Part shown: one piece after another, positions 28,197 through 53,144 of the stretch
How the letters are laid out: each line of letters opens with the position of its first letter
Position numbering within the stretch: position 1 is the stretch's first letter
Assembly (NCBI GenBank): GCA_051047955.1
Contig: JBPGPT010000008.1
Coordinates: forward strand, 62,001 to 126,000
Length of the DNA: 64,000 nt
Source of the DNA: Cystobasidiomycetes sp. EMM_F5
Taxonomy: Eukaryota
Direction of reading: 5' to 3'
Program-made: the position numbers and the translations under genes
Notes under the pieces: model-generated
Seen by the model: the letters and a program-made list of their open reading frames with translations, nothing else
What the model was told of the DNA's origin: nothing
Databases searched by the model: none

Positions 28197-31100
28197 CTAT
28201 GCACAAAGTCTGCTCCAAAACCCCACCGGCGGCTTAGCTCTTTGGTAACGATGTCCGACCGGGTTGGCGACGCCCCCGTGTATTGTGCGAACCGTCACTG
28301 CACGAAGCATGCATGTCAGACAATCTACACGTTATTCCAGTTGTCGCACTCAACGTCACTAACCTCTTTCCGATCTCATTGCGCTCAGGGCACCGCACTG
28401 AGGAGGTCCTGATTCTATGCGCCAATTCATACGATCCCCTCCATTGGCCATTGGCTCTGTCAGAATAAACGGTTTGCGTCTGTGACGAAGGAACAAGCTC
28501 AGCAGGCTCGATAGACGCACATCGGCTTGTCTGGGCAGCTTGGACAGTACTAACCTGGCAGGAAGACCTCCACGAAGACGCAGAATGCGTCTGCCGTCGT
28601 CATCAGTGTAGAGAGGTAATTCAGTCTGCCTCAGATACCTTCGCCAATCTGGAAAGTTTAGCGCATCCGCATGGTTTCGTATATCGCGACCGAGATTATT
28701 GTCACGCGATGACCGTGATCTGAGCAGGTAGTTGACTAGCTCCTCCACCCGGTCGATGAAGACGATCAGAGTCTTGCACTCGTCGCGGCTCACAAAGGCT
28801 GGGTAGCCACGTTGAGCCCCGTCGCGGGTGACGACTTCGTACTGCATCAGATTCCTGACCCGGCTCATCAGATCGCTACCTTGACCCCAATTCCGCCGTA
28901 GCATGTCTCTCGCTACGAGCGTCCTACGCTCTTCATCCAGATGACCTAGAGCAAGGAATTCTGCAAATGGACGGTGAAACGGCTCGCTCGCCTCCAGGAC
29001 TGGATGTCGTTGCGGTCGAATCTCGAGTATCTTCTGGCGACGTTGTCGATACTCCCCTCTGTAATTGTTACCATTTCTGAGGCTTCTCGTTGGCATACTA
29101 CCGAAGAGACACGGTCACGGTAAGCAATCATGCAATCAGTTTATTGCAGCTTCGACTTACGGTACGTCTGTACTAGAAGACGATGATGAGCTGAATGACC
29201 AGCTGCTGAATGAACTAAATGACCAGCTGCTGGATGAACTGGAGCTTGAGCTGGCAGGGCGGCGAATGCTGTTGCGTACTGATGTTACATGAGGAGTTTG
29301 AAAAGTCTGCGCACGTTGCCGGCGATGGCGATTGTGGTCATGACCACCTCTAGGCCTTCTCGACGGACAATCAGTGAGATAACATCATCACAAATCAGGA
29401 CATACGGGAGGAAGGCGCTAGAAGACGAAGATGAGCTAGAGGATGGGCTATATCCGGAACTTGAGTCTGCAGGGTGCCGATGAGGTACCGATTGGCTACG
29501 ATATCTAGACGCGTTAGGCGTCCCGATAAACGTCGTTTGCGCCATGCCTTCGGCGTGTTGATTGCCATTATCGGCTGGACTGGTGACATTACCGATATCC
29601 CTCGTTTCTCTGTAGTCCCGCCCGAACTCGGATGTAAGAAAGTTGTCGACAGCTCGGGCTGGATCGACGGTGTTCATCGCTCTCCAGCGGCCGCCAGGCG
29701 CATTCAATGTATACCTCAGCAGGCGCGGATCTTCTCGACGACAGTAGCCACACTGTGCAGGAAGCGATGTGTTGCCTTGCACAGGAAGAACTTGTACTTG
29801 GCACTCTCTACGGCCGTAATCAGTAATGACGTGACATGCTACGTAAAAGGGGCCTACAAGTGGAACGCGTGTCCGCAGGAGAATACGTAACACTGTGCAG
29901 CATCGTTGTCCGACCACGATATTCCGCAGATTTCGCATTCGTCGCGACCGAAATAGCCTTGCCTTCCTACGAGACAAGACAAATCGCTGGCTCTTACCCA
30001 CGTTCCTGATGTGCCATGACGCGGGGTAACGATGGCCTGATATCTCCGCCACGCAGCTTCAGCTTCTGTGTCAACCGGCTGAGTGCCTGTCGACCTTCGC
30101 GCTGAACCTTGCGACAGGCCGGAGCCAGTCTCCGTAGGAGAAGGGAGATCTCCTGCAGCGGACATGGAGCTCCCACTGCTTTGCCTCGCAGCCGCCGTGT
30201 TTGCGTCGGCAACAGCTCTGGCCAACTCGGCGTCCATGACAATTCTTTGCATACGCTCGAATGTCCGAAGCGCAGCATCGTACGTCTGCTGCGTGACGTT
30301 GTCGATGCTGTAGAAGTGGGCGAGATGCATATTTGCTTCTGCCACCAACACTTCACCATGATCGAATGCCAGCGGCATCTGATTGACCATGAGTAGCAGA
30401 TTATCCCCTGCAGAGCAGAAGGAGGTTGAGTCAGAGCTTAAGTCAGAGCTTTCGGACTCTCCCAGCGGGAGTAGGTTTCGCTTACGAAGTCGTATGCTCA
30501 GAAGCCGCTGTCGACCAGGTGGCATTGCTGCAAAATCGTCAGACCGGCCGACACGCTGCGTCCCGTCCGTTTCGGCTGATGTATGACCCAAGTTCAACGA
30601 CGAGTAGTCCATGTTTTGAGAAGAATGTCAAAAGACGTACCGTTCTGCCGAGGACTAGCGTCTGCGGAATGCCTCGCTGATGACGATGCGTGAGAAGGTA
30701 CGGCAATTCCGATGGCTGAAACATTGGATTCAGAACCCTCTCTTTGCACTTCGATGGTGAAGTGTGCATACTACTGTCACCTTGCCGCGCACCTGCTGCA
30801 CTGCCACGGCGTTCGGAGGGGACGTTGCCGGGCAACATCGTTGCTGAACGTCGCTCAGGACTCTGGACACTATGACTGCGGTTCGACGTTGATGCTGGAC
30901 TGGCTGTTGGATGACGAGGGGGTCCTTCGCTCCGTGGCGGTACAGCTGCGGTCGTCATCAGAAATTCAGAAGCAAGCTTCAACACAATATAATGCGTACC
31001 TCGAGGTGACGCCATGCTCGGTGATACTGGTTCTAATGGACTGATGCGTCACTGTTTGCCCTTCTTTGATTGCCGGACATACGTACCCATGCCATCGCGC

Positions 31101-32410
31101 CTGTCCCCCGCTGCCGACACGTACATCAGCTCAAGTACGCGGTAAAATCTGCGTAACGCATAGTGACTCACCCGAAGAGTGGCGCGTGATACCAGAGCTG
31201 GCGACAGCATTGGCGACTCCGGGCGGGGGAGCGTTCTCAATGATCCTCTCGTAACACACCAAGGTAGGCCGGACTACAGCGCGGGTGTAGCCCAATCGGC
31301 GCCGAGCGGTGTCAGCGTACTCCAAGACTTCCTGTTGACTGACGCGGCGCCTGTTCTCGTCTTGATACTCCAGATACCACTGGCCATCGGTGTGACGACG
31401 AAAGCAGCTGTAGGTTCCGTGGTCTTGGTGGCCGCCCCGCCTTCTTCCATGATGGCATATTATGCCGTAAAGCCGATACCTCGTATTTTGACCCTGTACC
31501 GGCCACTGCGCGCGACCGCAGAGTCAAATACGATCAAACATTGGACGTGTGCACTTACTGCCATATACTCTCCAATGTCAATCTCCTGGTCAATAGTGAA
31601 TTGAGATCCTCTCGGAGGAGGCTGTAGACTAAACATGAGTACGTCTTGCGCTGTCTGAATGTATTGTCGATTTTGTCGAGACCGATTACAGCTACGGAAA
31701 GGGAGGTCAGTCGCATCGAGGGAGCACAGTGCAACCTCATACCTTCCACACCTCTGCTCGAGCAACGCGCCGTGATTCCAGCCACGCAAGCAAGCACGAA
31801 TGCTTTGATCTTGGTCGATAGGATTCAGTATAGGCAACGGATCAAGTGGGCTCCGTCTCCACGAGGAGTGTTGATCGTGTATCGGTAGCCCATGTTCATC
31901 CAAACACTCTAGACGAGTTATTGGCTGCCATCCAATCGCGCTTGTCCAGAGCATCGTGGAATGCAAGTCTGTTCGAGCATCAGCACGCAGGAGAATTACC
32001 CTCATTGCGTCCGCAGCGTCGTGCTCTTGTCCAGGCGAGAAGCGATCTGGTTGCATACGCAATTAGCAGGGTTCCGCGACCATACACATGGCTACCGAAA
32101 TACCCCGAATGACGCGGGTTGCAATCTCCTCTCGCAAGGTGATGAAGTCGAAGCCGCCATTATCCACGCCAACTGTTCCTAGCGCGTAGCTACTGAAGAG
32201 GCAAGCGAGACAATTTTGCTCATCTAAAGCCATATGATGGTGTCAGTACTGCCAGCCCGCCTCGGAAGCATGTTCGAGTTATTGCTTACCTCGACACGGT
32301 CTGTGGGAGGCAGTCCCTGCTTGAATACCGTCCAGTAGCGTATCGCTGAAAAGAATCATTCTTAGCACCGCAGACAAGTAGCATGTATTTGGTACCAGCC
32401 GATTGGACAT
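28197..32410 (-). CDS. Array copy 1: pseudo-USP + intact RING-H2 + Ser-rich linker + LRLRGG-containing domain
   Basis: ATG 32410 MSNRLVPNTCYLSAVL. Hand-spliced GT-AG introns keep frame through CEIC..CGHAFHL|ECQ..CGYC and ILRLRGGLPAR to ...KPPVGFWSRLCA* at 28197. Confidence 0.8.
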
Positions 32411-32945
32411 GTCTGAGGAGTGCGCTGGGACGCGAGAGCAAGGTGAATTAGCCTGGGGAATCCTCAGAATGGGATTCGTTGGCGCTAATCACTGTGCGAT
32501 GGAAAGAGGGGAAAGAGACGGACATTACGAGACTTGGAGCGTGCACTGCTGGAGCACCCAAACGCAGACGGTGGTCTGAGACGCTGTGCTAGAAGGGCTG
32601 TGGAGACTACCTTAGTGTGTAGTGCGATGAGATGACTGTCGCCTCCCCTTGTCAGCGTGTGATGCGGTGGACGTCAGTTGCAAGGGCCGTCGTCAATGGT
32701 TAGCTGCGGATGTCAAATTCACCGTGCTGCACTCAGACATGGCTGCGCTGCACTGCTGCATCTATATACGGCAGTCCGTAGTACGTAGCAAGCAGCCTGA
32801 GGCAGCTGGTGGCAAGAAGCAAGGACTACTCCAGCTGGGGTCCAAACACCGTACAAACACTTGACGGAGATCCATTACAATCTCAAAGTCTACTTCTAGA
32901 TTCTAAGCACATTATCTTATCCCGTACGCTCAATAACCTCTCCGC

Positions 32946-35900
32946 CTAGTAGTACCCTCTCAACTCGGAGCGCGAAGCTGTGACCAGCTCGTACGCGTGT
33001 CGCACGGGATGGACAACGCCATTGTGCACAGTCTGCGCATACACTGAACACCGTGTCTACTCCTTAGCCTTGGCATGACTTGCGAAGTGAGACTAGGACA
33101 AACTGACCTCGTTGCTGAAAACTGGATCTGCCAGAGGTGCTGTTTCGAGTCGCTGGCGTGATCCGCCAATTGTCGCGATCTCCTAAATTGGCCAGTGGCT
33201 GCGTCATAACGAACGGCCTGCGCCTACAGAGGGAGAAAAGGCTCGTTAAGCCTTGATAAAGACACATCGGCTTGCCTTAGCAGATTGCATGACCCTCACC
33301 TGGCGGGAAGTCCACCACGAAGGCGCAAAATGTGTCTGTCGTCATCATCAGCATAGAGGGGCAGCTCAATCTGCCTGAGATATCTTCGCCAATCTGGAAA
33401 GTCTAGCGCGGCCGCATGATCACGAATTTCGTAAGCAGAAGGGCGCGACGACCGTGATCTGAGCAGGTAGTTGACTAGCTCCTGCACCCGGTCGATGAAG
33501 AAGATCAAAGTCTTGCACTCGTCGCGGCTCACAAAGGCTGGATAACCACGTCGAGCACCATCGCGTGTATGGACTTCGTACTCCATAAGATCCCGAACGC
33601 GGCTCATAAGATCGTTACCTTGACCCCAGTTCCGACGCAGCATGTCTCTCGCTGCGAGCGTCCTCCGCTCCGTCCCACGCCTTCCGTTTAGATGACCTAG
33701 AGCTAGGAACTCTGCAAATGGGCGGTGAAATGGCTCGCTCGTTTCCAGGACTGGATGTCGCCGCTGTCGTGCCTGGAATATCGGCTGACTTCAATGTCGT
33801 TGATCTCGACTGTCATTTCTGCGCCTTCTTGTTGGCGTACTGCCAAAGGACACGGTCAAGGTAAACAATCAGCTTATTGCAGCTTCGACTTACGGTCGGT
33901 CAGGGCCAAAAGACGTTGACGAGCTGGATCCGGAGCTTGAGCTAGCGGGGCGGCGACTGCCATTGCGCACTGATGTTGCAGGAAAATCTTGAAGTGTCCG
34001 TCGATGTTGCCGCTTATCTCGACTGCGGTTGACACTATCCCTGGGCCTTCTCATCGTTGGACTTTCAGAGTGACATGATCAGCGCTCAGTGCTGTCGCCA
34101 CATACGGAAGGACATACGGATGCGACGTGTCAGAAGACAAAGATGAGCTAGAGGATGTGCTCTGTTCAGTACTAGAGCTTCCAGGACGCCGACTGCCGGG
34201 TGTTACTGGAGTTGTTGTGTGAGACTGTATCGTCTGGAGACGAGAACGGTAATCTGGACTGCTATGATGACCTCCTCCAGGCCTTGTCGTAGATGGACTG
34301 ACAATAAGTCGTGGTCAGTAAGTGCGCGCAGCTCATTGTGGTCTCGACTTACGGCAGGTTGGGGCTATAAGACGATGCTGAGCTGGATGTTGAGCTGGAC
34401 TCGGAGCTTGAGCTTGCTGAGCGCCTGCTGCCGTTGCCTACTGAAGTGGCAAGAGGAGGTTGAAGTGTCTGCGGGCGTTGCCGAGAATCTCGACTGTCAT
34501 CATCACCATCTCTGCGCCTTCTCGTTGGCGATCTGCCGAAGCGATACGGTCACGTTAAGCAACCAGCTCCGTAGCTTCGACTTACGGAAGTATGTCTAAA
34601 GACAATGATGAGTTGGACGACGAGCTGCTGGACGAGCTGGATCCTGAGCGTGGGTTGGCAGGACGCCGACTGCTGTTGTTTACCAGACTGGCTGGAGATG
34701 CACGCGATCGGATCCCATTGCCTTCAGCATCCCGCTGTGGAGGTCGCTGAGGGACGTCCGGAAATGGCGCAGCTGTCCTGTCGCGATGACCTGCCGGAGG
34801 AACGTCGGCGCCTATACTCGGCGGTCTGCTGGGAGCGGGCCTGAGCTGACCTTCAGGCCTGTTGACCATTGACGGTGGAAGTCTGGCTGTTCCATCCTCA
34901 GAAGGACGCGGATCAGCGCGACTTGAGGTAATAGCATGCTGGCATGCAGTGCGCTCTCTATAGCTCCTCCCATACTCGCTCGAGAGAAAGTCGTCGATTG
35001 TGTGCCTGCCGATTGCGAGGGCACTGGCGTACGGTGTGCGCCAATGTAGGTAGTTTGCAAGAAGATCATCTTGCTGGCGACAATGTATGCATCGGGAGGG
35101 AGACATATGGTTATTAGACCCGGAAATACTAACCTGACCTGACCTGCAAGTTTGGTCAGAAGGCAGCGTGGCAGGACTCACAATTAAGCTTACAGATGCG
35201 TTACGTGTCCACAGCTGAAGACGTAACAGTCTCGTGCTGTATGCTGTGACCACGCTTCCAAGCATATGCCGCATGCGGCATTGACACCGTCCCGGTTGTC
35301 AAGGAGAGCTAGCTCATCTGATGTCATACACAAACCTCCGGAGCGGTCGCCATTGCGAAGAGCCTGATACCTTTGCCACGCAGCTTCAGCTCGAGGATGG
35401 CTTGATGGTGTTGATCCAGATTGCTGCCTATTGGAAGTAGTGTGACCAGTAGAGCGCCGAGACCTGGACGCGGAGCCCGCATTTGATGCATTTGGTACTG
35501 CAGCCTGTTGTGTAGGGGCAAGCGCCTCCGCTCTTCTCTGTGCGGCCGCCATAACGGCACGTTGAATCCGCTGCGATGCTTGGTACGCAGCTTCGTAAAC
35601 TTCGTTTGCACTGTCCAATACACGATGGGCAGTGAGGTCGGAGAATCGTGTGTTGATATGGTCGCGGTGCAGGCCTGCTTCAGCGCGCAGAGCTTGGCTA
35701 TTCTCAATCTCAAGCGGCACGTTATTCGCTAGTCGATCAAGCTCATCGCCTAATGGAAAGGTAGCTTAGGTCACGATCCTGCCTTTCGAGCAGAAGATGC
35801 TTTACTTACGAAGACCTTCAATCCGCAGCCGCCGTCGGTACATTGGCTCTGGTGAACCATTGTCGTGAGAAGAGCTACGATTCTGGACATTGTCATACCG

Positions 35901-37699
35901 GTCCAAAACCGGCTCTCGGGCACTTGTTGGGCGACTAGAGCGATCTTCGCGAGCAAACTGAAGGTCCCAGTACTGAATGTATTCGTTTGCCCGGTTCAGG
36001 ACCACTCGAGTCACGTCCGCATTCCTCATGCGCCGAAGATGAAAGCGGGCTTCCGAGGGGCCGTGTCTCGTGTCTTCGGTTGGGGGAAAGCGCTGCAAGA
36101 TTTCTTGTAATCTCACGTCTGTTTAGATGGCACGACCAGCGCTCAGACACATAGACAAACCGACAGGTCTCCACCTACCGCAATTCGCGATCTCTTCTGG
36201 TGTTGGCACTGGATTGGATGTCAGAGAGGGTGGTCAGGTGAATATTCAGTTCCCGATGTATTGCGCACCTGGCATCATTCTGGGTGACAGAGGACCTGTC
36301 ACACAGTAGCGCGTCAGCCTTGCCCTCATACCACGCCAGAGAAACTCACGCTGGTGCTCGCGATCCTCGCTTACTGCGCTCGCATGACTTAGCGCCACAA
36401 GTGGGTTTAGATGACAATACTTACCAGGGAGGCGATGGCCAGACAGGGAGTTGCCGGCTACAATTGCAGCTTCGGGGTGCCGAGCCTCTGCTTCCCCATT
36501 GATTCTCTCGTAACACACCAAGGTAGGCCGGACTACAGCGTGAGTATAACCCAATCGGCGCCGAGCGGTGCGAGCGTAATCTAAGACTTCCTGTCGGTTA
36601 ACAGAGCGCCTGGGTTCGTCTTGATACTCCAGATACCACTGGCCGTCAGTATCACGATGAAAACAGCTATAGGTGCCATGATCTTGGTTGCCTTCCTCCC
36701 TTGTTCCGTGATGGCATATTATGCCGTAAAGCCTATACGTTGTACTTTGACCCTGTACCGGCCACTACGCGCGATCGCAAAGTCAAACACGTGGTCACGC
36801 TTTGAAGGTGCGCACTTACTGCCATATACTCCCCAATGTCAATCTCCTCACCAATGCTGAATCCCAAGCCCTCCGGAGGAGGCTGCAAATTGAACATCAG
36901 TACGTCTTGCGCTGTTTGAATACATTGTCGATTTCGTCGACGCCGACCACATCTACGGGAAAGAAGTTCAATCACATTCAACGAGCAGAGGGCAGTTGCG
37001 TACGTGAGACATGGGCGATCGAGTACCCCGCCGTCGCTCCAATGACGCAAAGCATCACGAATGCTTCCATTCCCGTCGACAGGATGAAGTATGGGTAACG
37101 GATCACTTGGATCCGGTCGCCAAGGGGAGTGTTGATCGTGTATTGGTAGCCCATGTTCATCCAGACACTCCAGACGACCCGTAGATTGCCAGCCGATAGC
37201 GCTTGTCCAGAGCATTGTGGGATGCTGTCCCGTTCGAGCTCGCGCTCGCGAGATCACAATCCTCATTGCGTCCGCAGCATCGTGCTCTTGTCCAGGCTGT
37301 AAGCGATCTAGTGGCATACACAATCAATCAGCAGGGTCCCACGACCATACACACGTACACTGAGTTACTCTGAATGACGCGGGTCGCAATCTGCTCTCGC
37401 AGGGCGATGAAATCAAAATTTCCGCTGGCTATACCTGCTAATTCCAGAGCATAGCGAGCGAAGAGGCAAGCGAGACATCTTTCTCTATCTACAAACACAT
37501 GCGAGGTTAGCCCGGCGAATTCCGCTCGAAGGCATTTTTGGATAGATTGCTTACTGCTGCAAGTAATGTGAGCTCTAGTCCCGTCTGCAATGCTATCCAG
37601 CAGTGTCTCGCTAAAGAGAATCATTCTCAGCACCGCAGACAGATAGCATGTGTTGGGCACCAGTGATGCTTCTTGCGAAGAGGACGCGGACGTGGACAT
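32946..37699 (-). CDS. Array copy 2: same architecture, three extra Ser-rich exons, in-frame TGA at 33791-33793 before the C-terminal domain (possibly truncated)
   Basis: ATG 37699. USP boxes, degenerate RING (CGIC..CGHVTHLSG..CIHC), HILRLRGGLPAR, final exon ends ...SELRGYY* at 32946. Confidence 0.72.
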
Positions 37700-38286
37700 G
37701 GCGGAGGGGAGCGTTGCGACGTAAATATGTGATTCTCGTGGGCTGCTTGGAGGATGGTGGGGAATGAGTATTTGGCGTTGTTACTTACAATGCGAAAGGA
37801 GAGAGACCGTCGTCGCCTTTTTGTAGATTAATGCCATCCTGCAGGTAAGCTTCAATGACACGCTGTGCTGACAGAGGCTGTGGGTGGGGTGTTTCCGTTC
37901 AATAGCGGGACAATGGCCAGCGAGATGTGAAGGGGAAGGATGTAGAGGGAAAGGGCAGTGTCAGTGTCAGTGTTAGTCATAGCCTGACCGCTCATTGTCA
38001 GTCAGTCATCAGCTACCGCGTTGCTTCTGCCGAATAGACCAGGCTGTCGGAAGTTGCAACCAGCTCATAGCGGCATATGTCCTGGCCCGTTATTAATCGA
38101 ACGTCGTGGGTTGCCAGTTAAACAATTCCCGTATGAGCGGCAACTTCAAGTTGTATGAGCTGAGAGCATTTCGGGCGAAGTCGACAACGAGCAGCTTTCG
38201 CCCGAAGATGCTCCGCATCGATCAGCTGAGTATCAAACAGCACTCAATGTCCGTACATCTGTCTGGAAATGCCATATAATGCTCAT

Positions 38287-41200
38287 CTACGCAAATCGAC
38301 TACTGAATCTACCCCAGAATCCTCTCGAGCCTGAAGCGCTGGCCAGCTCGTACCCGTGACGGACGGGATTCGCAACGCCATCGTGCACTGTCTGTATGTG
38401 TACTGAAGACCAACACTGCTTGTCAGCGCGGCCCTGATTTGGGGAGAGTGACAACCTACCCCTCCGCTGGGCACTGGATCTGACAGAATTGCCGTTTCGG
38501 CTCGCTGGCGTAATCTGCCAGTTGATACGATTCCCTCCGTTAACCATTGGCTGTGTCAGAATAAACGGCTTGCGTCTATGGTCGCCGTCAGTCAGCATAG
38601 CCAACTCACATCGTCCATCACTGGCATCCACCGCTCACCTAGCAGGCAATCCTCCCCGTAACCTCAGAATACGACTACCAAAGTCGTCGCTGTAGAGCGG
38701 TAATTCTGTGCGTCTCAGATAGTCACGCCAGGCAGGAAAGCCTAGCGCAGCAGCTCGTGCTTGTATGTCATCACCACTTTCCCGGTGCCGTGATGAACGC
38801 GAGTCGAGCAGAAACTCTGCTAGTTCTTCCACTCGGTCGATGAAGATGAGGAGCGCCTTGCACTCGTCGCGGCTGACGAATGCCGGAAGGCCTCGTTGAG
38901 CACCTTCACGGGACACGACTTCGTACTGCATCAAGTTTCTCACGCGACTCATCAGGTCATCGCCGCGGCTCCAATCCCGCTGCAACATTTGCACCGCAGC
39001 AGAACAGCCGCGTGATGAGTCGAGTCGACCAAGCGCCAAAAACTCTGCAAATGGTTTATGAAAAGGATTCCCCGTTTCCAAGATCGGATGCCGACGTGGT
39101 CGCGCTCCAGGTGTTCTCTGAGTAGAATGCCTGTAGCTTTCATTGTTGGCGTCAACGTTGCCGCGTCTTCTCGCTGACCGTCTGCTGGTGAAGTCACACA
39201 ATCAAAATCATCGCCCAGCGCATTGTAAACCCCGACTCACGGTAGGTTTGTGCTAGAAGACGATGACGAGCTGAATGACGATCTGCTGGATGAGCTGAAA
39301 GATGAGCTGCTGGATGAACTAGACCCGGAGCTTGAACTGGGAGGATGCCGACTGCCATTGCGGGCTGATGTTCTTGGAAACTGTTGTGTTGATATCCTAC
39401 TTTCCTGCATTCGAACGCGTCTTCGGTCTGGAACAGCCGGAAGGCTCGTGTACGCCTCCGCATCCCGCCTGAGCGGCGTACTGAGTGGAACTTGCTGAGA
39501 AAAGTTTGGAAATGGCGCAGCCGTCCTGTCGCGAGCCGGCGGTCTGCTGGGAGTAGGCCTATCGACCGTCGACGGTTGAAGTCCGGCTGTTCCCCCTTCG
39601 GAAGGACGCCGATCAGCGCGAGCTGAGGAAAAATCATGCTGGCATACATCGCGCAGTCTATAGCTGCTGCCGAACTCGTTCGTAAGAAAGTCGTTGACAG
39701 GATCCCGCCCGCGAACGTTAGCGTTGAGGTCACGCCAACGTAGATAGCTTGCAAGACGATCATCTTGCTGGCGACAATGAATGCATCGGGAGGGAGACAT
39801 GTGGTTATCAGCCCGAGAAATACCTATCTGGACTGATCTGCAAGATTGGTCAGAAGATAGCGTGGAGGGACTCCTGGTTTCGCTTACAGGGGCGTCACAT
39901 GTCCGCATCTAAACACGTAACAGTCCGGTGCTGTATGCTCAGACCACCGGTTCAAGCATATACCGCATACGACATTGAGACCGTCCCGGTCACCAAGGAG
40001 GGCTAGCTCTTGGGAGGTCATGCACAGACCCCCGGAAGCATCGCCATTGCGTAGCGCTTGATATCTCCGCCAAGCGGCTTCGACACGAGAATCGCTTGAT
40101 GATGTCGCTGCAGGTCTCCTTCCTCCAGCTTGCTGCCTGTTGACAGTATTGTGTCCAGCAGAGGGACGAGATCTGGACGTGGGATATGTGTCTCCGCTGC
40201 CGAACCTTCGAAGCGATGTCGGTGCCACTGCGCCTATCTCTGCCGGATTCTGAGGACTCATGGTACTACCTGCACGTGATACGATTGGTACTGGGGCACG
40301 CGCAGCCACTCTGCGCGTTGCGGCCAACATGGTCTCACGTTGGATCCGCTGTGATGCCTGATAAGCCGCTTCGTAAACAAGATTTGCACTGTCGGATACA
40401 GGATACGCAGCGAGATCCTCAAATCGTGCGTTGATGTGCTCGCGGTGCAGGCGTGCTTCGGCGCGCAGAGCTTGGCTATTCTCGACATCGGGCGGTACAT
40501 TATTCGTTAATCGATCAAGCTCGTCGCCTGACGGAAAGGAAGCTTGAGTAACGATTCTCAATCAAGAGAAATGCGATGTGCTTACGAAGAGCCTCAATCC
40601 GTATTCGATGTCGGTGAGCCCCGAATAGACTTTCCAGTGAGTTCCTGTGCGAAATACTTCGCTCCCTGTCTGCTGAGACTGCAAATTTAGCGACAAAACT
40701 TACAGGTTATCGAGGAGAATGAGGCTGAACACACCAATCTGCGAAGTACCACTATCCGCGGAGCGCCGTCCCGGAGGATACATCCGCGCAAGTAAGTCAA
40801 CCGGTTCGATTCGACGGCTTGCTGAGTGCAATACCAGCATCAGCACTTTCATCCTCATCAGGCTATATGCTGAGGCTAACCGTTTCCTGCAATGTTCGGT
40901 ATGCGCTCGTAACATACCAAAGTTGGTCGGACGGTGTGGCCGACCTGACCATGGGCAAACGCTGCAAAATCTGCCACCTCGGGACACGGAAGCGGTGCGC
41001 GATCTTGATACTCAAAGAGCCATTGACCATCTCCTTGACGACGAAAGCAGGAATAAGTTCCGGTACTTTGGTCTCCGTTTGCGTATCTTCCTCCGTGGTG
41101 GCACACAATGCCATTGAGGCGATACCTGGTGCTTTGACCCACCGGAGGTCCCTGCGAGAGACCATTCAGGTATGCCAAGGAGAATAAAGCCAAAGCTGAC

Positions 41201-42049
41201 CGTACCAGAAAGCATTCGTTCAAGTCAAGGTCGGCATTGCACTCAAAATGTTCACCGTCGGGCGGAGGCTGCAGGCGGAACATCACCACATCTTGGGCTA
41301 CAGTCAGCCAATTACGAGATTGACGACGTCTCCCGCATGGGTGGCCTTGATCACATGGTGAATCTAGCCTTTGTGGTGTTCTCCAACGAATGAGACAGTC
41401 ATGCACACTGCCTGTTTCGGCTGTGTTCAGTATCGAAGTGTGCTGACTTGTTGGCGAGGCGATGCTGATGTGCGGAATGAACATGGGATCGTTGCTTGAG
41501 TGTAAGCATTCGATCTGAGTGAAGCTTATCCATCCAATCGACGCGGTCCAATTCATATCTGCATGTCTTCGAGCAGCTTGCATAGCTGCCGTTTGCAACA
41601 ATGTCGCCAACGCTTCGGCAGAATCGTGTTCCTGACCGGGTCTAAACTGATCTGGACAGACAAGGTAGTCAGACTTGGGATTCCGGAAGGCTGCAGCACC
41701 AAACCAACCTCGAATGACGTTCTGGGCTATACTCTCTCGCAATTCGATGAATGTTAATCCTTGCCCTCCAAATACATGAAGCGCGTAGCTTGCTAATACA
41801 CATGCTAGACAGCTGTCTAGCGGATGTCAAAGATCTGAAGTCAGCGATTTCAACTATTCACAGTTTCGGATGAGCCTCACCTTGATCGGAACATGGTCTC
41901 TGTCGCTCAGCTCCATCAGCGATGCGATTCATGATTACAGTAGAGTGTACGATCATCCTGAGAGCAGCCGAGAGATAGCATGTATTTGGTGTAGGTCCTG
42001 CATCCCGTCTCCTGTGCCGAGATGTACGCGGGCGAGCATTCTCGGACAT
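38287..42049 (-). CDS. Array copy 3: pseudo-USP + degenerate RING + LRLRGG-containing domain
   Basis: ATG 42049. In-frame junctions read NIAGN|ASRRIE, SQI|VSADR, IEAL|RDELDRL, HVTPL|SVQ, STNLP|RRSARR. Ends ...GFWGRFSSRFA* at 38287. Confidence 0.82.
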
Positions 42050-42945
42050 CCCGACTAGCAGATTGGCTTTTCTTGTATGTTGTTAGTGGGGCAGATCATC
42101 GTCAGCCGGGCCAGCTGTTGACGCTGGGCGTCCAATCGTATATTGACGCCCATCGCCTACGCTGTGCTAAAGCTATACACGGGCCCTGCCTTATTTGAAG
42201 GGAGTTGGGGCTGCACCCGGGGCGTCATATCTAGACGGAGATGATCATGATCTCTTTTGTTGGGTCTCTCGTGTCGTGGGCGGTTCTGTCGATTATACTC
42301 TGCTTCGACTGTCAACCAGCTGTCAGGCATCATTCGCCTACAAGCCATTTGATCAGTCCAGCCCAAATCATCAATGAACCTTGAGTGAAGTCAGGACGTC
42401 AGTGAATGTCAGTCTTGCCCCGCTTTGCGATAGTCTGGTCGTGTCGGTTATTGCTGAGACAATGCCTGAATGATACCGCTGCATGCCAGAGGCGGTACAC
42501 AGCTTGCATCGATTCCGCATGGGCTGCCTGTAAGTGCGTACATGCTCTGTGACCGTATGCTGCTGCTACAGTCTCGTTGCTGAAAGGGCGATTCGAGGGA
42601 AATGTCACTCCGTTGAGCTCATTGTAAGGTGCATGGCATTGTTGCTGGGCTTGCATCTCGCACTTTGGCACAGGCAGTCAAGGATGTCGAAAGCAGTATC
42701 GCATCTGGGTGTGCTCATAGATCCAACTCCGGCTGACCACGGGCAGGTAGGTGAGAGCGTCCACCAGCAACCAGCAAATCACGCTTCACAATGACACTCT
42801 ACAGAGAGAACGGAAAACCAGGGGACTGAAATCCTCAGTCTTAACTAACGTCTAGTCGACAGTACAGTACAGTAACTATTTCTCATAAAAGACAGGCGGA
42901 CTGGCTAGCCATGCGTTCGCTGCGGGGAAGTGCTCGAGCTCTTCC

Positions 42946-45900
42946 GCTACAAGTGACCAAACCATCCCTCGAAGAGCTGACTCGGGGCCTTGGCTCGCTT
43001 GTACTTGTGAAGAACCGGGTTCCGAACGCCTTCGTGAATAGTGCTTATGTTGACTGAGGAGCATGTCAGCTCACGCTGGATGGTCATGCCATGCGACGAA
43101 AGAAACAGACTGACCTTGTCGCGGACCGCGCGACCCAGAGTCAGAGCACGAACGACTCACAGCCTCGATCCGCCAATTGGTGCGGTCCCCATTGTTGGCC
43201 AAGGGCTGCGTCAGTATGAATGGCTTGCGTCTGCGGGCAACATCTGTCAGTACGAAATCCCTCCATCATAACATAGCGCATACCGGCCTGGAACGCCGCC
43301 ACGCAGTCTAAGCATGCGATTGCCATACTCATCGGTGTACAGAGGCAGTTCTGTACGTTTCAAGTATGTTCGCCAAGCGTCGAAATTTAGATCAATGGCG
43401 CGTTGCCGCATGTCCAGACCGCAGTCGCGGTCGCGTTGCGTCCTAGAATTGAGCAGGTAATTTGCCAAATCACCCACCCGGTCGATGAATATGATGAGCG
43501 CCTTGCACTCGTCGCGACACATTAACGAAGGCAATCCTCTTTGAGCACCCTCGCGCGTCACCACCTCGTATCGCAGCAGCTCTCTGACACGACTCATAAG
43601 ATCGCCACGCCAATCCCAATTGCGCTGCAGCATACGCGTTGCAGCAGAACATCTGCGAGATGAATTGAGCGTACCAAGAGCCAGAAATTCGGCGAACGGC
43701 TTCTCAAACGGCTCTTGCGAGTCAAGTACCGGGTGCCGACGCGGTCGCCCTACAGGAACAGTCGGAGCGGTTCGCCTGCCATTGCCAGTAGTAGCGATGT
43801 CGTCCATAGGCCTCCTCGTCGCTCGACTGCCAAAGAGATGCTGTCAGCAACAAGATAGTAAAAAACACTGCTCCCCGACATACGGGGCTGGTGCGCCATA
43901 GGACCTTGATGAGCTGGATGACGAGCTCGAGCCGGAGCTTGGGCTTGAGCTTGGTGTACGCCGACGACTGTCGCGCACTGGACTTGCTAGAGCCGGTTGT
44001 AACGATGCAATGCGATCTCGCGATCGAACAGGTCTTCGATAGCGTTCGTCTGGGAGGTCATGATGTGCTTCAGCATCCCGCGTCAGCGGCGTGCTGCGTA
44101 AAGCCTCATGCGGGGCTCTCGAAGATCGCCTGGAGTTTCTACCGCGAAGATGTGACGGCTGTATGTCGCTGCCCACAACCAACGATTCGGTAAAAGCAGG
44201 CCTTCGGTATCCTTCGGCCATGTCTCCACTTTGCCCGATCAGATCGTCTAATCTTCTGTTCAAGTCACCCCAACTGGCATTCCTCGACGAATGAAGTCCA
44301 GCTATCCCCTGCTCTGAAGCGCGACGACTGGGGCCAGCTAAAACCCTATTGTGCTGACATGCATTCCGATCCCTATACTGACTTCCAAACTGGCTGGTAA
44401 GAAAGTCGTCAAGTGCGTTTCGCTCGCTGTGAGAAGTAGTCCAATTACGCTGTGTGCGCCAACGAATATAGTCTGCGAGACGATTATCTCGTGCACGGCA
44501 GTGTATGCATAGAGACGGTGACATGTGATTTTGGTCAGCGGAGATTCCGATCTGGCCTGATCTGCGAAGACGATGGGCGGCCGCGTCAAGTGGCAGCACT
44601 GCTTCTTTGCAGGATAAACTCACAAGTGAGTTACATGTCCGCAGCTAAAGACGTAACAGTCCGGTGCTGTATGCTCAGACCACCGGTCCAAGCAGATCCC
44701 GCAATGGTCATTCAGACCGTCCCGCTCACCAAGGAGGGCTACCTCTTCTGATGTCATGCACAACTCCCCGGAAGTATCGCCATTGCGTAGTGCTTGATAC
44801 CTTTGCCAAGCAGCTTCAGTTCGAGGGTCATTCGATGGTGTGGGTTCAGATTGCTGCCTGCTGAAAATAGTGCGACCAGCAGAGGGTCGAGATGTGCGAG
44901 CGGGCCTCGTGTTTCCTCTGCCGTGCCGGCGACGCGATGGTGGGTTCGCTGCGCCAGTTTCTGCCGGATCCGGAGCTCTAATAGCGTTCCCTGCATTTAA
45001 TGCATTTGATACTGTAGCTTGCTGTGTACGAGCCTCTGTAGCCGTTCTGTCTCGCGCTGGGGCGTGAACGACATGTTGCAGTCGTTGCAGTGCTCGCGCC
45101 GCATCGTTGTAAGCTTCACGTGTGACCATGTTCGGACCTTCCCATTGTGCGATGAAGGGATTGGCTCCGTCGAGCAAGGCGCGGGTTTCAGCGCTGGGTG
45201 GGTTGCGACGCATGCGAGCGATCTCATCTTGCAAATTCGAGACTTTGAGGACGCCGTCCTGGTATTAGATCTTTGGACTTTATGCATGAGTAATGCGATC
45301 GACATTACTTACTCAGCTGAAATGCTTCGATGAAGTCTGGCGGCCGTGACGATATGTTCATCTGATTGCTGCTGACTGAGATTGCCATGTCAAGATTTGT
45401 GTCATTCCACCAAACAATACCAACTGCGTACACGACGATGGACGATCTTGCGTAGGTTGAGTATCAGCACCTGCTATGCGCTCGTAAGATACCAAAGTTG
45501 GTCGGACGGTGGACCGTATCTGTCCACGAGCAAACGCTGCAAAATCAGCCTCCTCAGGACACGGAACCGGCGGGTAGTCTTGATATTCAAAGAGCCATTG
45601 ATCATCCTCGCGGCGACGAAAGCAGGAATAAGTTCCCGTATCTTGGTCCCCGTGTGTGTATCGTTCTCCGTGATGGCACACAATGCCAGTGAGGCGATAC
45701 GAGGTGCTTTGACCTTCCGGCGGTATCTGCGAAAAAGCGTTCAAATATGCCAAGACGAGCTATGACAATGGTGACCACACCTGAAAGCATTCGCTCAATT
45801 CAATCACGGGATCGCACTCGAAGTGTCGACCAGCGGGCGGAGGCTGCAGGCGGAACATTACCACATCTTGAGCTGCACTCAGCCAATTACGGGATTGGCG

Positions 45901-46600
45901 AGGTCTACCGCATCGGTTGCCTTGATCACATCGGGAGTCTATCCTCTGTGCTACTCTCCAACGAAGGAGGCAGTCACGAACACTGCCCGTTCCGGCTGTG
46001 TTCAGTATCGGTGTTGGCTGACTGAGGGGCGAGCCGTAACGGGTATGCGACAGCCAATCAACATTGCCGCTTTCGTCCACGCATTCGATATTGGTGAAGG
46101 TTCTCCATCCGATCGACGCGGTCCAATCCATGTTTGCATGCGTTCGTACAGCTTGCGCAGCTGCAATTTGCAACAATGTGGCCAACGCTTCGGCAGAATC
46201 GTGTTCCTGACCTGGTCTGAATTGACCTAGACAGACAAGGTAGTCAGACTTGAGAATTGGGAAGACTGTAGCACCGGACCAACGTTGAATGACATTCCGG
46301 GCTATACGTTCTCTCAATTCGATGAATGTCAATCCTGGCACTCCAGATACGTGAAGCGCGTAGCCTGCTAATGCACATGCTAGACAACTGTCTAGCGGAT
46401 GTCAAAGATCTGAAGTCAGCGATTTCAACTATTCACAGCCTCGGATGAGCCTTACTTTGAGCGGAACACGGTTGGTGTTGCGCAGCTCCTGCGGCGATGC
46501 GATCCATGATTACCGTAGAGTGTACGATCATCCTTAGAGCAGCCGAGAGATAGCATGTATTTGGTGTAAGTCCTTCACCTCGCCTGGTGCGCCGAGACAT
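42946..46600 (-). CDS. Array copy 4: pseudo-USP + degenerate RING + LRLRGG-containing domain
   Basis: ATG 46600 MSRRTRRGEGLTPNTCYLSAAL, RMLRLRGGVPGR, ends ...QLFEGWFGHL* at 42946. One linker junction near 45250-45310 needs an AAG acceptor and is less certain. Confidence 0.75.
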
Positions 46601-47222
46601 GTTGATGAGCGGTTTACGCCTGTTTGATCCTCGGAACGCGCAGCGCAACGAGATATTTGATTTCAATGATTGGAGCGGACCCAAGCATTCTCCAGACTGG
46701 ATTGGGAGCATGGGCAGACCCCACCTGCTCATCTGCAATTTGGTATGCTGTGTAGTTTCCATCATTGCTGTGTAGCCTCCATCATTGCTATGCTAGCGGG
46801 TGGGAATCTGGCTCGCTGCCGGGGAACTGGGCATGATCCACCAACAATTGATACACGGCATGTGCACGGAGAGAGTCGACTTGTACAAATGTAAATTGGT
46901 GGAACAGTCCGCGTAAATCAGCTGCACCCCGCGGTGGTGCGCTAAGCCAGTAGATGAGTGTCAGCGTGGGTCAGAGAGGTATGGCATAGCAATATTGTGT
47001 AAATCTAGACTATCAGATTCGCAAACAACGTTGCTTGGATCAGCTTATCGTTAGTTTTAGTTTTGGCTTAGTCTCGCTTTCGTCTCCCAACTAATCTGCA
47101 CCGCTCCATTAGCACTCAGCACTCTCGACATTAGTACACTGCGTCAGCATAACCATCGCCAAATCTCGACACGGCCCTGCATCAGTCTCAAGTCGGCACG
47201 GCGTCAAGCCAATTAGGCCAAT

Positions 47223-48752
47223 ATGAGTGACGCGCAACCACCAAATGATGCACCAGCTGGGTCTGGAAATAACGACAAGGACAAGGACAGCCAGTCTGCG
47301 TCCACGTCTGCCTTGGCTGGAACCTCGACATCTGCGGCTGGAACCAGCGCTGGACCCAGCGATGCCGCCATGGAACCCGTCGAGGACGAGCTCCCAGAGG
47401 ATATCCGGAATGCGAGTGCCGACGACTTGCTGACGAGGGCGAGGATGCTCGATAACGAGATTCGAGTGAGCGCAGTTTTTACTTCTCTCTATCGTTGTGC
47501 GGATGTGCTGATTACGCAAGACGTCCAGATGATGCGCAACGAAAAGATCAGACTGATGCACGAGGAGAACAACATGAAGGAAAAGATAAAGGACAATACG
47601 CAAAAGATAAAGGACAACAAGCAGTTGCCGTACCTTGTCGCCAAAGTCGTAGAGATTCTGGATGTCGACGAGGAGGCGACAGAGCCCGAGGAGGGAGCAA
47701 ACATCGACCTCGACAGTACGCGCAAGGGCAAGTGCGCTGTAGTAAAGACGACCACACGGCAGACTGTCTTCCTTCCGCTCATCGGCTTGGTCGATCCCGC
47801 CAAACTCCGGCCGAACGATCTCGTGGGTGTACAGAAGGACTCGTATCTCGTCCTCGATACCCTGCCCGCCGAGTACGACTCTCGTGTCAAGGCAATGGAG
47901 GTGGACGAACGACCTACAGAGACGTACCAAGATATCGGTGGGCTCGACAAACAGATCGAGGAGCTGGTCGAAGCGATTGTGTACCCTATGAAGTATCCAG
48001 AACGATTCAAGGCGCTCAACATCAAGCCTCCCAAGGGTGCCCTGATGTATGGACCGCCCGGGACAGGCAAAACGTTGCTAGCGAGAGCGTGTGCTGCTCA
48101 AACGAGCGCATGCTACTTGAAGCTAGCTGGACCATCGCTCGTACAGATGTTCATCGGAGATGGCGCAAAGCTCGTTCGCGATGCGTTCGAATTGGCAAAG
48201 GAAAAATCGCCCGCCATCATCTTTATCGACGAAATCGACGCCATCGGCACAAAGCGTTTTGACAGCGACAAGAGCGGAGATAGAGAAGTACAGCGGACAA
48301 TGCTGGAGCTGCTCAATCAACTAGATGGGTTTGGCTCAGACGATCGCATCAAAGTCATTGCAGCTACGAATCGTATCGATATTCTCGACCCGGCTTTACT
48401 GAGATCAGGCAGGTTGGACAGAAAGATTGAGTTTCCACTGCCGACCGAAGATGCGAGAGCGCGAATCATGGAGATACATTCGCGTAAAATGCACGTCTCA
48501 CCACGAGTTAACTTTGAGGAATTAGCGAGGAGTACAGACGAGTTCAACGGCGCACAATTGAAGGCTGTTTGCGTTGAAGCGGGAATGATTGCTCTTCGAG
48601 AAGGCGCATCGATCATAGGTCACGAGCACTTCCTCAGGTGAGCCTCGCGTTGCATGTCCTTCTGCACGGTATCCCTATTGACATGTTCCTCCTTTAGTGG
48701 CGTCCTGGAAGTGCAGTCCCGCAAGAAGAACGATCATTTCTACTATGCGTAA
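47223..48752 (+). CDS. RPT5: 26S proteasome AAA-ATPase subunit Rpt5 (6A)
   Basis: [59 protein letters not shown]. Last exon ends ...KKNDHFYYA*. Confidence 0.98.
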
Positions 48753-52837: not shown

Positions 52838-53144
52838 TCGAAATGTGAGGGATGCGTTTAGCGACTGCGGAGAAAGGTTGTAAGACATGCGTTTTCTAGC
52901 TTTAGGCGCCGTAGCTGCAGATCTGTTGTTGTAGCATCTCTATCGTTCTCTCCACAAAGTGAGCACGCAAAGAGAACAATGAAAATGTAACGGTCGTAAG
53001 ATTGGAGCTCAGATGCATCAGGGCTTTGCATTCTGCACACTCAATCCATTAATAACCTTCGGACGGACCACATGAGTGACTCTAGTGGGTCACAGCAGCC
53101 CAATCCATCACTATGTCCATGTTTTGAGATACTGCTCCCCAGAT

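Follow-up and report, generated by a model that had tools for sequence, protein, structure and literature searches.

Four tandem fungal paralogs with putative USP-like and RING-like domains carry the exact ubiquitin-tail hexapeptide LRLRGG, a possible tethered ubiquitin-tail mimic

We report four tandem paralogous genes of a basidiomycete, Cystobasidiomycetes sp. EMM_F5, each encoding the hexapeptide LRLRGG near the C-terminus of a predicted protein that also carries putative USP-like and RING-like domains. Its six residues match residues 71-76 of ubiquitin exactly (PMC5131917). We tentatively favour, at a little short of an even chance, the explanation that LRLRGG is a tethered mimic of the ubiquitin tail, lacking a ubiquitin body, which the USP domain of the same protein would use either as a self-cleavage site or as a pseudo-substrate. 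We prefer it because USP-like and RING-like domains accompany the motif in the predicted protein.

The four paralogs and their hexapeptides

The window, that is, the whole 64,000-nucleotide stretch of DNA analysed, was searched by tblastn with the exon ORFs of the fourth copy as queries, which revealed four paralogs (c1 to c4) in tandem on the minus strand with the same order of blocks in each. Gene limits were taken from the ORF translations, and the hexapeptides were located by back-translation matching and a six-frame scan.

28197..32410, minus strand: c1, inferred gene from ATG to stop
32946..37699, minus strand: c2, inferred gene, block order as c1
38287..42048, minus strand: c3, inferred gene, block order as c1
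42947..46600, minus strand: c4, inferred gene, block order as c1; the start possibly lies further upstream
28566..28583, minus strand: LRLRGG of c1 (CTG CGT CTT CGT GGA GGT)
33311..33328, minus strand: LRLRGG of c2 (TTG CGC CTT CGT GGT GGA)
38650..38667, minus strand: LRLRGG of c3 (CTG AGG TTA CGG GGA GGA)
43295..43312, minus strand: LRLRGG of c4 (CTT AGA CTG CGT GGC GGC)

In c1 the blocks run from the USP-like domain through a putative canonical RING-H2 finger, a Ser-rich linker and a C-terminal domain to LRLRGG and a tail; in c2, the RING is separated from the C-terminal domain by three Ser-rich repeat exons. The strand, order and spacing of the blocks are alike in all four units, phase-consistent GT-AG introns are present at several junctions, and we infer that the USP-like part, the RING-like finger and the LRLRGG part belong to one polypeptide. 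The public gene models at this locus are fragmentary or chimeric, with genes split and mis-joined, and one of them, P0006, spans the 3' part of c3 and has the same LPAR|RKPF splice that was inferred in our analysis.

The degenerate back-translation of LRLRGG matches the window exactly four times, always on the minus strand, and the six-frame scan of the window finds the hexapeptide nowhere beyond these sites; shuffled sequence gives a mean of 0.11 matches, with at least four in none of 100 shuffles. The preliminary description had placed the motif at these positions correctly, omitting the strand, and the codons that it listed are the minus-strand reading. Its statement that all six positions vary synonymously with no change of residue is likewise borne out, the numbers of distinct codons at positions 1 to 6 being 3, 4, 3, 2, 3 and 3. 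Since the synonymous variation extends to every codon of the motif, recent gene conversion is ruled out as the cause of the identity. The paralogs are old (dS from 0.56 up to saturated) and, judged from these comparisons, the four hexapeptides are a single ancestral event retained in tandem copies, not four independent origins.

For a protein of matching length and composition, 4.4e-4 to 6.4e-4 occurrences of LRLRGG are expected by chance, and the Arg content of the four proteins is 12%. Among the 90 possible arrangements of two Leu, two Arg and two Gly, the four proteins contain just LRLRGG and its one-residue shift. A hydrophobic residue (I or M) precedes the motif, as V70 does in ubiquitin. 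All four copies possess a ubiquitin-type LRLRGG tail, but an internal one, with 74-80 residues after it.

USP-like and RING-like domains

Upstream of the motif lie the following elements, of which the protease boxes occur in all four copies and are supported by alignment with USP36 and, for the His-box region, by the Pfam UCH model, and the fingers come from ORF translations, Pfam and spacing judged by eye.

32354..32392, minus strand: USP Cys-box-like motif, c1
37619..37657, minus strand: Cys-box-like motif, c2
41951..41989, minus strand: Cys-box-like motif PNTCYLSA.LRMI, c3
46526..46564, minus strand: Cys-box-like motif, c4
31359..31478, minus strand: USP His-box-like motif and QW..EYQD box, c1
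36618..36737, minus strand: His-box-like motif and QW..EYQD box, c2
41002..41124, minus strand: His-box-like motif YRL.GI.CHHG...GTYSCF and QW..EYQD box, c3
45577..45699, minus strand: His-box-like motif and QW..EYQD box, c4
29738..29937, minus strand: RING-like finger of c1, split by a 50-nt intron
35193..35273, minus strand: first half of the RING-like finger, c2
39887..39967, minus strand: first half of the RING-like finger, c3
44623..44703, minus strand: first half of the RING-like finger, c4

The Cys box, a PGQEHD motif, the His box and QW..EYQD (the Asp box) are intact and in USP order in all four copies; this agrees with the preliminary description, which had assigned an N-terminal USP domain to the same gene. 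We take PNTCYLSA.LRMI, PGQEHD, the His-box motif and QW..EYQD to be USP boxes on the basis of the USP consensus, with support from the USP36 alignment and the ESM Atlas matches. The Pfam UCH model (PF00443) gives 20.4 bits (E 4.2e-4) for c4 and 20.0 bits (E 5.5e-4) for c3, short of the cutoff of 23.9 and limited to the His-box region, and these exon-wise scores are lowered because introns split the domain. A PDB profile search gives eight matches at E up to 1, seven of them to USPs and the best to USP36 (0.012), and in the ESM Atlas, where feature matches reach 0.95, the ten best family-bearing matches are all UCH. The N-terminal domain is a putative, very divergent, USP-like protease domain, which we infer may be active and may bind or cut LRLRGG.

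A RING-H2 finger has eight zinc ligands spaced as C-x2-C...C-x-H-x2-H-x2-C...C-x2-C. This spacing fits c1, where the finger reads CEIC-x11-C-x4-CGH-x2-H-x2-C ... CGYC when the Cys and His residues are followed by eye across the inferred splice, that is, over the 50-nt intron. The sixth ligand is absent from c2, c3 and c4, and c3 also lacks the fifth. Pfam RING models match weakly, with E from 0.01 to 0.66, and over the first half only.

The orphan C-terminal domain and the conserved tail

The domain preceding the motif was delimited by alignment of the four copies, and the tail that follows it by comparison of the copies and their ORF translations.

28555..29018, minus strand: orphan C-terminal domain of c1, about 155 aa, ending LRLRGGLPAR
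33300..33769, minus strand: C-terminal domain, c2
38639..39102, minus strand: C-terminal domain, c3
43284..43747, minus strand: C-terminal domain, c4
28480..28554, minus strand: intron 1 of c1, directly after the LPAR codons, 75 nt, GTTAGT...CAG, splitting an Arg codon after its second base
33224..33299, minus strand: intron 1, c2
38576..38638, minus strand: intron 1, c3
43231..43283, minus strand: intron 1, c4
28197..28565, minus strand: tail-coding region after Gly-Gly, c1
32946..33310, minus strand: tail-coding region, c2
38287..38649, minus strand: tail-coding region, c3
42947..43294, minus strand: tail-coding region, c4

In every copy the domain ends with LRLRGG-[LV]P[AG]R. Mean column identity in the alignment is 79%, and the dN/dS of the C-terminal exon is 0.086-0.164 in five of the six pairs, the sixth being saturated; by this measure the exon is under purifying selection. 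The invariance of LRLRGG itself, on which the preliminary description leaned, was given too much weight, since 78 of the domain's 159 columns, about half, do not vary, and PFAEFLALG (9) and DLMSRVR (7) are longer invariant runs, so that LRLRGG ranks third. An invariant run of at least six arises in 69% of 20,000 column shuffles, and the motif occupies one of seven fully invariant windows among 154 windows of six residues, which places it in the top 4.5% for a hexapeptide fixed beforehand. Its conservation relative to the rest of the domain is, on these counts, a modest signal. The eight residues upstream vary among the copies, and the order of the context, namely eight variable residues, LRLRGG, [LV]P[AG]R, a conserved Pro-/Arg-rich stretch and 17 fully variable residues, looks like that of a linear motif and not of a globular core.

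An inferred GT-AG intron of 75, 76, 63 and 53 nt (c1 to c4) adjoins the LPAR or VPGR codons in all copies. After LPAR (or VPGR), the tail continues in a 38-codon exon that reads R[KR]PF[IV][LM]T[QE]P..N.G.R.NW.I and then varies over 17 residues; beyond a second intron, the final exon contributes T[IV]H.GV..PV.H.Y. The earlier account of LPAR/VPGR and a tail of about 70 residues holds for the sequence after Gly-Gly once two inferred GT-AG introns are removed, and its length needs correction, as the tail is then 74-80 aa. Eleven of the first 21 residues of the 38-codon exon are invariant, and because the tail is itself conserved it is no disposable propeptide.

No Pfam family, PF00240 included, matches the C-terminal exon of any of the four copies at E up to 1; a profile of the domain alignment run against all of the PDB at E up to 10 gives three matches, none of them ubiquitin; and an ESM Atlas search of the domain gives no usable match. 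Two AF2 models, of low confidence (pLDDT 45.1 and 46.3), place five to seven helices, but no sheet, ahead of the motif; around the motif pLDDT falls below 50 and short strand segments appear, also at low confidence. The domain is, on these models, probably helical, and no similarity to ubiquitin beyond the six residues is detected by Pfam, PDB profile or AF2. The preliminary description, which had called the preceding region helical and proposed tail mimicry without a ubiquitin fold, framed the matter rightly. From established E1-ubiquitin recognition, activation of a processed form by E1 would be unlikely without a beta-grasp body.

Homologs outside this genome were found in none of the collections searched, and phmmer against 1.84 billion representatives retrieved only the window's own copies and two repeat proteins, which match other parts of the query. 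As far as these searches reach, the genes form a lineage-specific orphan, a fast-diverging, putative USP-RING family of a poorly sampled basidiomycete lineage. The idea that they are USP1 orthologs was rejected, the homolog search having retrieved none of any kind.

Possible uses of the motif and known parallels

Under the tethered-mimic explanation, LRLRGG would lie in an extended, presumably exposed, stretch after the helical domain and would enter the catalytic cleft of its own USP domain or that of a paralog. The more likely outcome would be a cut after Gly-Gly, as in USP1 autocleavage and in the action of viral papain-like proteases at LXGG, freeing the conserved 74-80-aa tail that starts L/V-P-A/G-R-R-K; less likely, the cleft would be occupied without cutting and the motif would serve as an autoinhibitory pseudo-substrate. 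In ubiquitin fusions a USP can cut where P1' is other than Pro, and as P1' here is Leu or Val, not Pro, a USP could cut at this site. Against the explanation, efficient catalysis by most USPs requires the ubiquitin body; the conserved residues after Gly-Gly fit one structural unit spanning the cut site equally as well as a released peptide; and a beta-hairpin that turns at Gly-Gly is an equal possibility for I-L-R-L-R / G-G / K-P-F-I-L-T. The narrower proposal, that these USP-RING enzymes cut their own chain after a bare LRLRGG, needing no ubiquitin fold, and so free a conserved peptide of about 75 aa, we consider possible but on the unlikely side.

Nearly as likely as a tethered mimic is that the identity with ubiquitin is coincidental, the hexapeptide being a chance product of an ancestral protein rich in Arg, Leu and Gly and having been kept as a structural element or as a binding motif unrelated to ubiquitin; it might, for example, be an amphipathic strand and Gly-Gly turn that pairs with the KPFILT strand of a single C-terminal module. 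The abundance of invariant columns and the longer runs described above are consistent with this, as are the Arg-rich composition, the short strand segments of the AF2 models and the conservation that continues past the supposed cut through [LV]P[AG]RR[KR]PF[IV][LM]T[QE]P, and from average residue frequencies we estimate a few tenths of a chance LRLRGG per typical proteome. Yet the chance per protein is about 5e-4, and the protein in which the motif has fallen also has USP-like and RING-like domains; the motif is preceded, as in ubiquitin, by a hydrophobic residue; and the variability of the eight upstream residues would be unusual in a core strand.

A ubiquitin-tail mimic might instead be read in trans, with housekeeping DUBs processing the protein as a ubiquitin fusion, or with the tail gripped by an E2/RING or ubiquitin-binding surface. 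Cellular DUBs do process ubiquitin fusion precursors and SDE2 in trans (for SDE2, PMC5131917), and a RING-like finger is within the same inferred protein, but trans-acting DUBs generally require a ubiquitin or UBL body, which SDE2 has and which is undetectable here, and the local concentration is by far the highest for the tethered USP domain. We regard this as improbable. Much less probable again is that the genes are pseudogenes or that the LRLRGG exon is expressed otherwise than inferred: the public annotation splits and mis-joins them, but dN/dS of 0.09-0.16 at near-saturated dS shows selection on the protein, all four copies retain every block along with the positions of introns and stops, and the single in-frame TAG of c4 falls within a 54-nt intron common to all copies. 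Least probable, and disfavoured, is that the C-terminal domain is a very divergent beta-grasp whose Gly-Gly end, after processing, lets E1 activate and conjugate the whole protein, for which only the exact LRLRGG and the preceding hydrophobic residue speak, against the Pfam, PDB and ESM Atlas results given above and two low-confidence models that are helical up to the motif.

The tethered-mimic explanation has several parallels. Ubiquitin fusion precursors (polyubiquitin and ubiquitin-ribosomal protein fusions) and ISG15 have LRLRGG joined by a peptide bond to further polypeptide, as in the paralogs, and DUBs cut this bond; they differ in having a complete beta-grasp body before the tail, where none is detectable in the paralogs. 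The DUB-type cysteine proteases PLpro of coronaviruses and PLP2 of arteriviruses cut their own polyproteins at bare LXGG with no ubiquitin body, but at multiple sites of viral polyproteins, whereas the fungal genes are chromosomal, contain introns and encode a single site per protein. USP1, according to PMC4326527 and PMC5131917, cleaves itself at the internal Gly670-Gly671, probably in cis, its fragments then having separate fates, and is, as proposed for the paralogs, a USP-family enzyme with a diglycine resembling the ubiquitin C-terminus in its own chain. Its site lies in an insertion of the catalytic domain; in the paralogs the motif is several hundred residues downstream, past a RING-like finger and the probably helical orphan domain, it comprises all six residues of LRLRGG, and its cleavage is only predicted. 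SDE2, whose PRLCGG is likened to ubiquitin 71-LRLRGG-76 in PMC5131917, is also a non-ubiquitin protein with an internal, ubiquitin-tail-like Gly-Gly, processed by DUB activity; its Gly-Gly closes an N-terminal UBL fold and the enzyme acts in trans, whereas here the motif is near the C-terminus, no UBL fold is detectable and the candidate enzyme would be in cis. Both precedents for internal di-Gly processing cited in the preliminary description hold.

If the motif is used, the family would be a second kind of self-cleaving USP after USP1, and the first with a full ubiquitin tail but no ubiquitin body, offering a compact natural system in which to ask how much of ubiquitin a USP must recognise and how the DUB and RING modules of a single chain are switched. 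Self-cutting at a bare LRLRGG, if true, would give viral LXGG polyprotein processing a counterpart encoded on a eukaryotic chromosome, and would provide a natural minimal USP substrate and a self-processing switch coupled to ligase-like and deubiquitinase modules. If the identity is coincidental, it is a caution that exact ubiquitin-tail hexapeptides arise by chance even in proteins of the ubiquitin system. Either way, the locus documents an orphan, putative USP-RING family whose public annotation is fragmentary and partly chimeric.

Organisation of the paralog array

The array consists of four inferred genes in tandem on the minus strand, here called c1 to c4. With the exon open reading frames of c4 as tblastn queries, all blocks were recovered in c1–c3 in the same order, at 31–76% identity, and the introns of the four genes are short, with GT-AG boundaries. 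The features discussed below are as follows.

Features of the four paralogs (window positions)
~28.2–32.4 kb, minus strand: paralog c1, inferred unit
28566–28583, minus strand: LRLRGG of c1
29157–29384: linker repeat region of c1
29738–29937, minus strand: RING-like finger of c1
~32.9–37.7 kb, minus strand: paralog c2, inferred unit
33311–33328, minus strand: LRLRGG of c2
33890–34549: linker repeat region of c2
35077–35273, minus strand: RING-like finger of c2
~38.3–42.0 kb, minus strand: paralog c3, inferred unit
38650–38667, minus strand: LRLRGG of c3
39240–39500: linker repeat region of c3
39771–39967, minus strand: RING-like finger of c3
~42.9–46.6 kb, minus strand: paralog c4, inferred unit
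43295–43312, minus strand: LRLRGG of c4
43850–44050: linker repeat region of c4
44495–44703, minus strand: RING-like finger of c4

Blocks of each unit, in order
Block 1: start Met, then PNTCYLSA.LRMI within 10–25 residues
Block 2: core with PGQEHD, AQDV.MF.LQPPP, YRL.GI.CHHG...GTYSCF and QW..EYQD
Block 3: variable linker with small exons
Block 4: RING-like finger, interrupted by a 50–62-nt intron
Block 5: Ser-rich repeat exons, one to three
Block 6: exon for a conserved domain of ~155 aa, ending ELPLY-x8-LRLRGG-[LV]P[AG]R
Block 7: tail

Between the RING-like finger and the C-terminal domain, the linker contains an exon unit that recurs (…QTLQ.P.ATSVRNGSRRPASSSS…poly-Ser). The paralogs seem to differ in how many units they carry, c2 having about three, c1 two, and c3 and c4 a single one each. 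Public annotation of the array is fragmentary. The protein model P0002 (328 aa; 33299–33790 and 31134–32488) fuses the C-terminal exon of c2, spliced directly after LRLRGGLPA, to the USP exons of c1, the paralog downstream, and omits the Cys box; the model P0006 is limited to the 3' part of c3, with the second intron retained in frame.

Ordinary fungal genes flank the array: COG4, SDR, MFS transporters, a Fungal_trans factor, SUR7 and a proteasomal AAA ATPase. The last of these, on the plus strand at 47217–48638, matches the AAA, proteasomal OB C-terminal and AAA lid domains of Pfam (E 4.9e-42). It and c4 are arranged head-to-head, with ~600 bp between it and the inferred start of c4, and the two, both ubiquitin-proteasome genes, may have a common bidirectional promoter region. 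Elsewhere, an open reading frame at 53076–53666 (plus strand) has two deaminase matches, one to the zinc-binding region of dCMP/cytidine deaminases and one to PF18785 (E 4.5e-32), the AID/APOBEC family of invertebrate type. For a gene from a fungus the latter family name is unusual.

Conservation of the LRLRGG motif and its tail

A scan with the degenerate back-translation of LRLRGG found four matches in the 64-kb window, all on the minus strand and exactly at the positions reported in the preliminary description; a six-frame scan of the window found no others. Dinucleotide-preserving shuffles gave a mean of 0.11 matches, with at least four in 0 of 100. The further claim that all six codons vary synonymously with no change of residue also holds, the numbers of distinct codons at positions 1–6 being 3, 4, 3, 2, 3 and 3. 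Recent gene conversion, considered as the source of the identity, was rejected because the codons differ among the copies at every position. The motif occupies the same, homologous place in each tandem paralog, and its four occurrences count as one ancestral event.

Conservation of the motif and its identity with residues 71–76 of ubiquitin are separate questions. As to the first, the C-terminal exon is under purifying selection, with dN/dS of 0.086–0.164 in five of six pairs (the sixth is saturated) and dS from 0.56 (c1–c2) to above 2.5. Within the C-terminal domain the invariance of LRLRGG is unexceptional: 78 of the 159 alignment columns are invariant, two invariant runs are longer (PFAEFLALG, nine residues; DLMSRVR, seven), and an invariant run of at least six arose in 69% of 20,000 column shuffles. 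For a hexapeptide fixed in advance, the proportion of fully invariant six-residue windows (7/154) is a modest signal.

As to the second question, the residue frequencies of the proteins themselves (L 0.08–0.09, R 0.12, G 0.06–0.07) give an expectation of 4.4e-4 to 6.4e-4 LRLRGG per protein, and only LRLRGG and its one-residue shift, among the 90 arrangements of two L, two R and two G, are present in the four proteins. By our estimate, LRLRGG would arise by chance a few tenths of a time in a typical proteome; the present motif is set apart from such occurrences by its host protein, with USP-like and RING-like domains.

The tail of ~70 aa that had been described after the motif is borne out, at 74–80 aa past Gly-Gly once both introns are removed from the inferred exons. 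A GT-AG intron (75, 76, 63 and 53 nt) follows immediately 3' of the LPAR/VPGR codons in all four copies and in identical phase, and P0006 has the identical splice in c3, LPAR|RKPF. Every copy has a first tail exon of exactly 38 full codons; 11 of its initial 21 residues are invariant (R.PF..T.P..N.G.R.NW.I), as are none of the final 17. The last exon, after the second intron, reads T[IV]H.GV..PV.H.Y, with a stop after 31–37 codons. The tail thus shows conservation of its own. Retention of the first intron was considered as a general means of ending the protein just past LPAR and was rejected, since it brings an immediate stop in c2 and c3 but not in c1 or c4.

The USP-like domain, the RING-like finger and their relatives

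The His-box region scores under the Pfam UCH cutoff of 23.9 bits in both c4 (20.4 bits, E 4.2e-4) and c3 (20.0 bits, E 5.5e-4). A profile of the paralogs, run against all PDB chains at E up to 1, gave eight hits, of which seven are USPs, led by USP36 (E 0.012), and one is an antibody chain. In an ESM-Atlas feature search with the c3 open reading frame the top scores (0.95, 0.94, 0.93) all belong to UCH families and the best family-bearing hits are UCH in 10/10, at 160 of 256 shared features, a range typical of distant relatives. The candidate catalytic Cys, His and Asp are intact in all four copies. We accept the N-terminal region as a putative, very divergent USP domain because the Pfam, PDB profile and ESM-Atlas matches and the motif order together point to one; a member of this family is probably a USP that is sub-threshold in Pfam. 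The ESM-Atlas clusters nearest to the core (40879–41826, minus strand) consist of short proteins with a UCH domain whose records name giant viruses as their source (Nucleocytoviricota; 0.93–0.95), taxon labels that are no indication of gene transfer.

An in-frame TAG at 45760–45762 suggested c4 as a pseudogene, a candidate rejected because the triplet lies within a 54-nt intron common to all copies and is no disabling mutation. Complete C3H2C3 ligands are seen only in the RING-like finger of c1, once its two halves are joined over the intron (…CGH-x2-H-x2-C…CGYC). The sixth ligand is missing from the other three copies, and in c3 the fifth is replaced by Pro as well. Since these ligands are missing, the ligase module of c2, c3 and c4 may be degenerate, with the USP motifs intact in all four paralogs.

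Five proteins passed an E limit of 1e-3 in a phmmer search with the C-terminal exon of c1 against 1.84 billion representatives; c4, c2 and c3 account for three of them. P0004 and P0005 were rejected as relatives: both are internally repetitive and matched query residues 74–108 and 25–74, outside LRLRGG. Word-indexed searches with the C-terminal exon and with the USP open reading frame gave no homologs. A metagenome scan with the C-terminal domain alignment A3 gave 241 pattern matches, none confirmed; a second scan, with the His-box alignment A6, produced 64, eight of which were weak generic USP relatives (35–53% identity over at most 55 residues), and neither the C-terminal domain (best E 0.98) nor LRLRGG was found at any of these eight loci. 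Relatives beyond the source genome were thus absent from the representative-protein, word-indexed and metagenome searches, which is weak evidence for true orphan status because the lineage is poorly sampled. In the titles and abstract openings found in the literature, neither a USP containing an internal LRLRGG nor the present family is described.

Possible roles of the motif

We tentatively favour, at a little short of an even chance, the reading that LRLRGG is a tethered mimic of the ubiquitin tail, which would enter the USP cleft of the same protein or that of a paralog. The preferred outcome would be a cut after Gly-Gly, which is more likely than the alternative, a pseudo-substrate left uncleaved. 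P1' is Leu or Val in the four copies, residues that USPs accept at this position in ubiquitin fusions. Viral papain-like DUBs cleave bare LXGG peptides. The context would suit a linear motif, with a variable spacer, LRLRGG, a conserved Pro/Arg-rich stretch and a variable stretch. USP1 is reported to cleave itself at G670/G671, a reaction that probably takes place in cis and is hampered by a mutation adjoining the site (PMC4326527); PRLCGG of SDE2, which is similar to LRLRGG of ubiquitin and belongs to a UBL fold, is reported to direct DUB cleavage (PMC5131917).

The main rival, a serious possibility if short of probable, is that the resemblance is coincidental and that LRLRGG is structural or binds something else. 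Against uptake by a USP cleft stand the UCH scores under threshold, the conservation that runs across the supposed scissile bond, a possible strand-turn-strand (ILRLR-GG-...KPFILT) and the dependence of most USPs on the ubiquitin body. Recognition of the motif by other proteins of the ubiquitin system is unlikely. Beside the purifying selection on the exon, a non-expressed or pseudogene feature is very improbable.

Least probable of all is a cryptic UBL with conjugation. In the C-terminal exon no Pfam family was found in any copy at E up to 1, a profile search of all PDB chains with a limit of E 10 gave three matches, the best at E 0.22 and none to ubiquitin, and ESM Atlas gave no usable match for the domain. 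AF2 predicted seven helices and an unstructured end including LRLRGG from the four-paralog alignment (pLDDT 45.1), and, from P0006 with exon rows over the tail (pLDDT 46.3), a helical core at ~58–69 with LRLRGG and the tail below 50; with pLDDT below 50, both models are too poor to place the motif as exposed or buried. They agree, at this low confidence, with the earlier suggestion that the region is helical and not beta-grasp, and by sequence similarity the C-terminal domain is apparently not a ubiquitin-like domain.

If LRLRGG is indeed a tethered tail mimic, the family would differ from SDE2, of which it is not an ortholog and which has a UBL fold whereas no ubiquitin fold was found here. 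It would function like the autocleavage of USP1, though it is not a USP1 ortholog, and like a ubiquitin fusion precursor minus the ubiquitin body.
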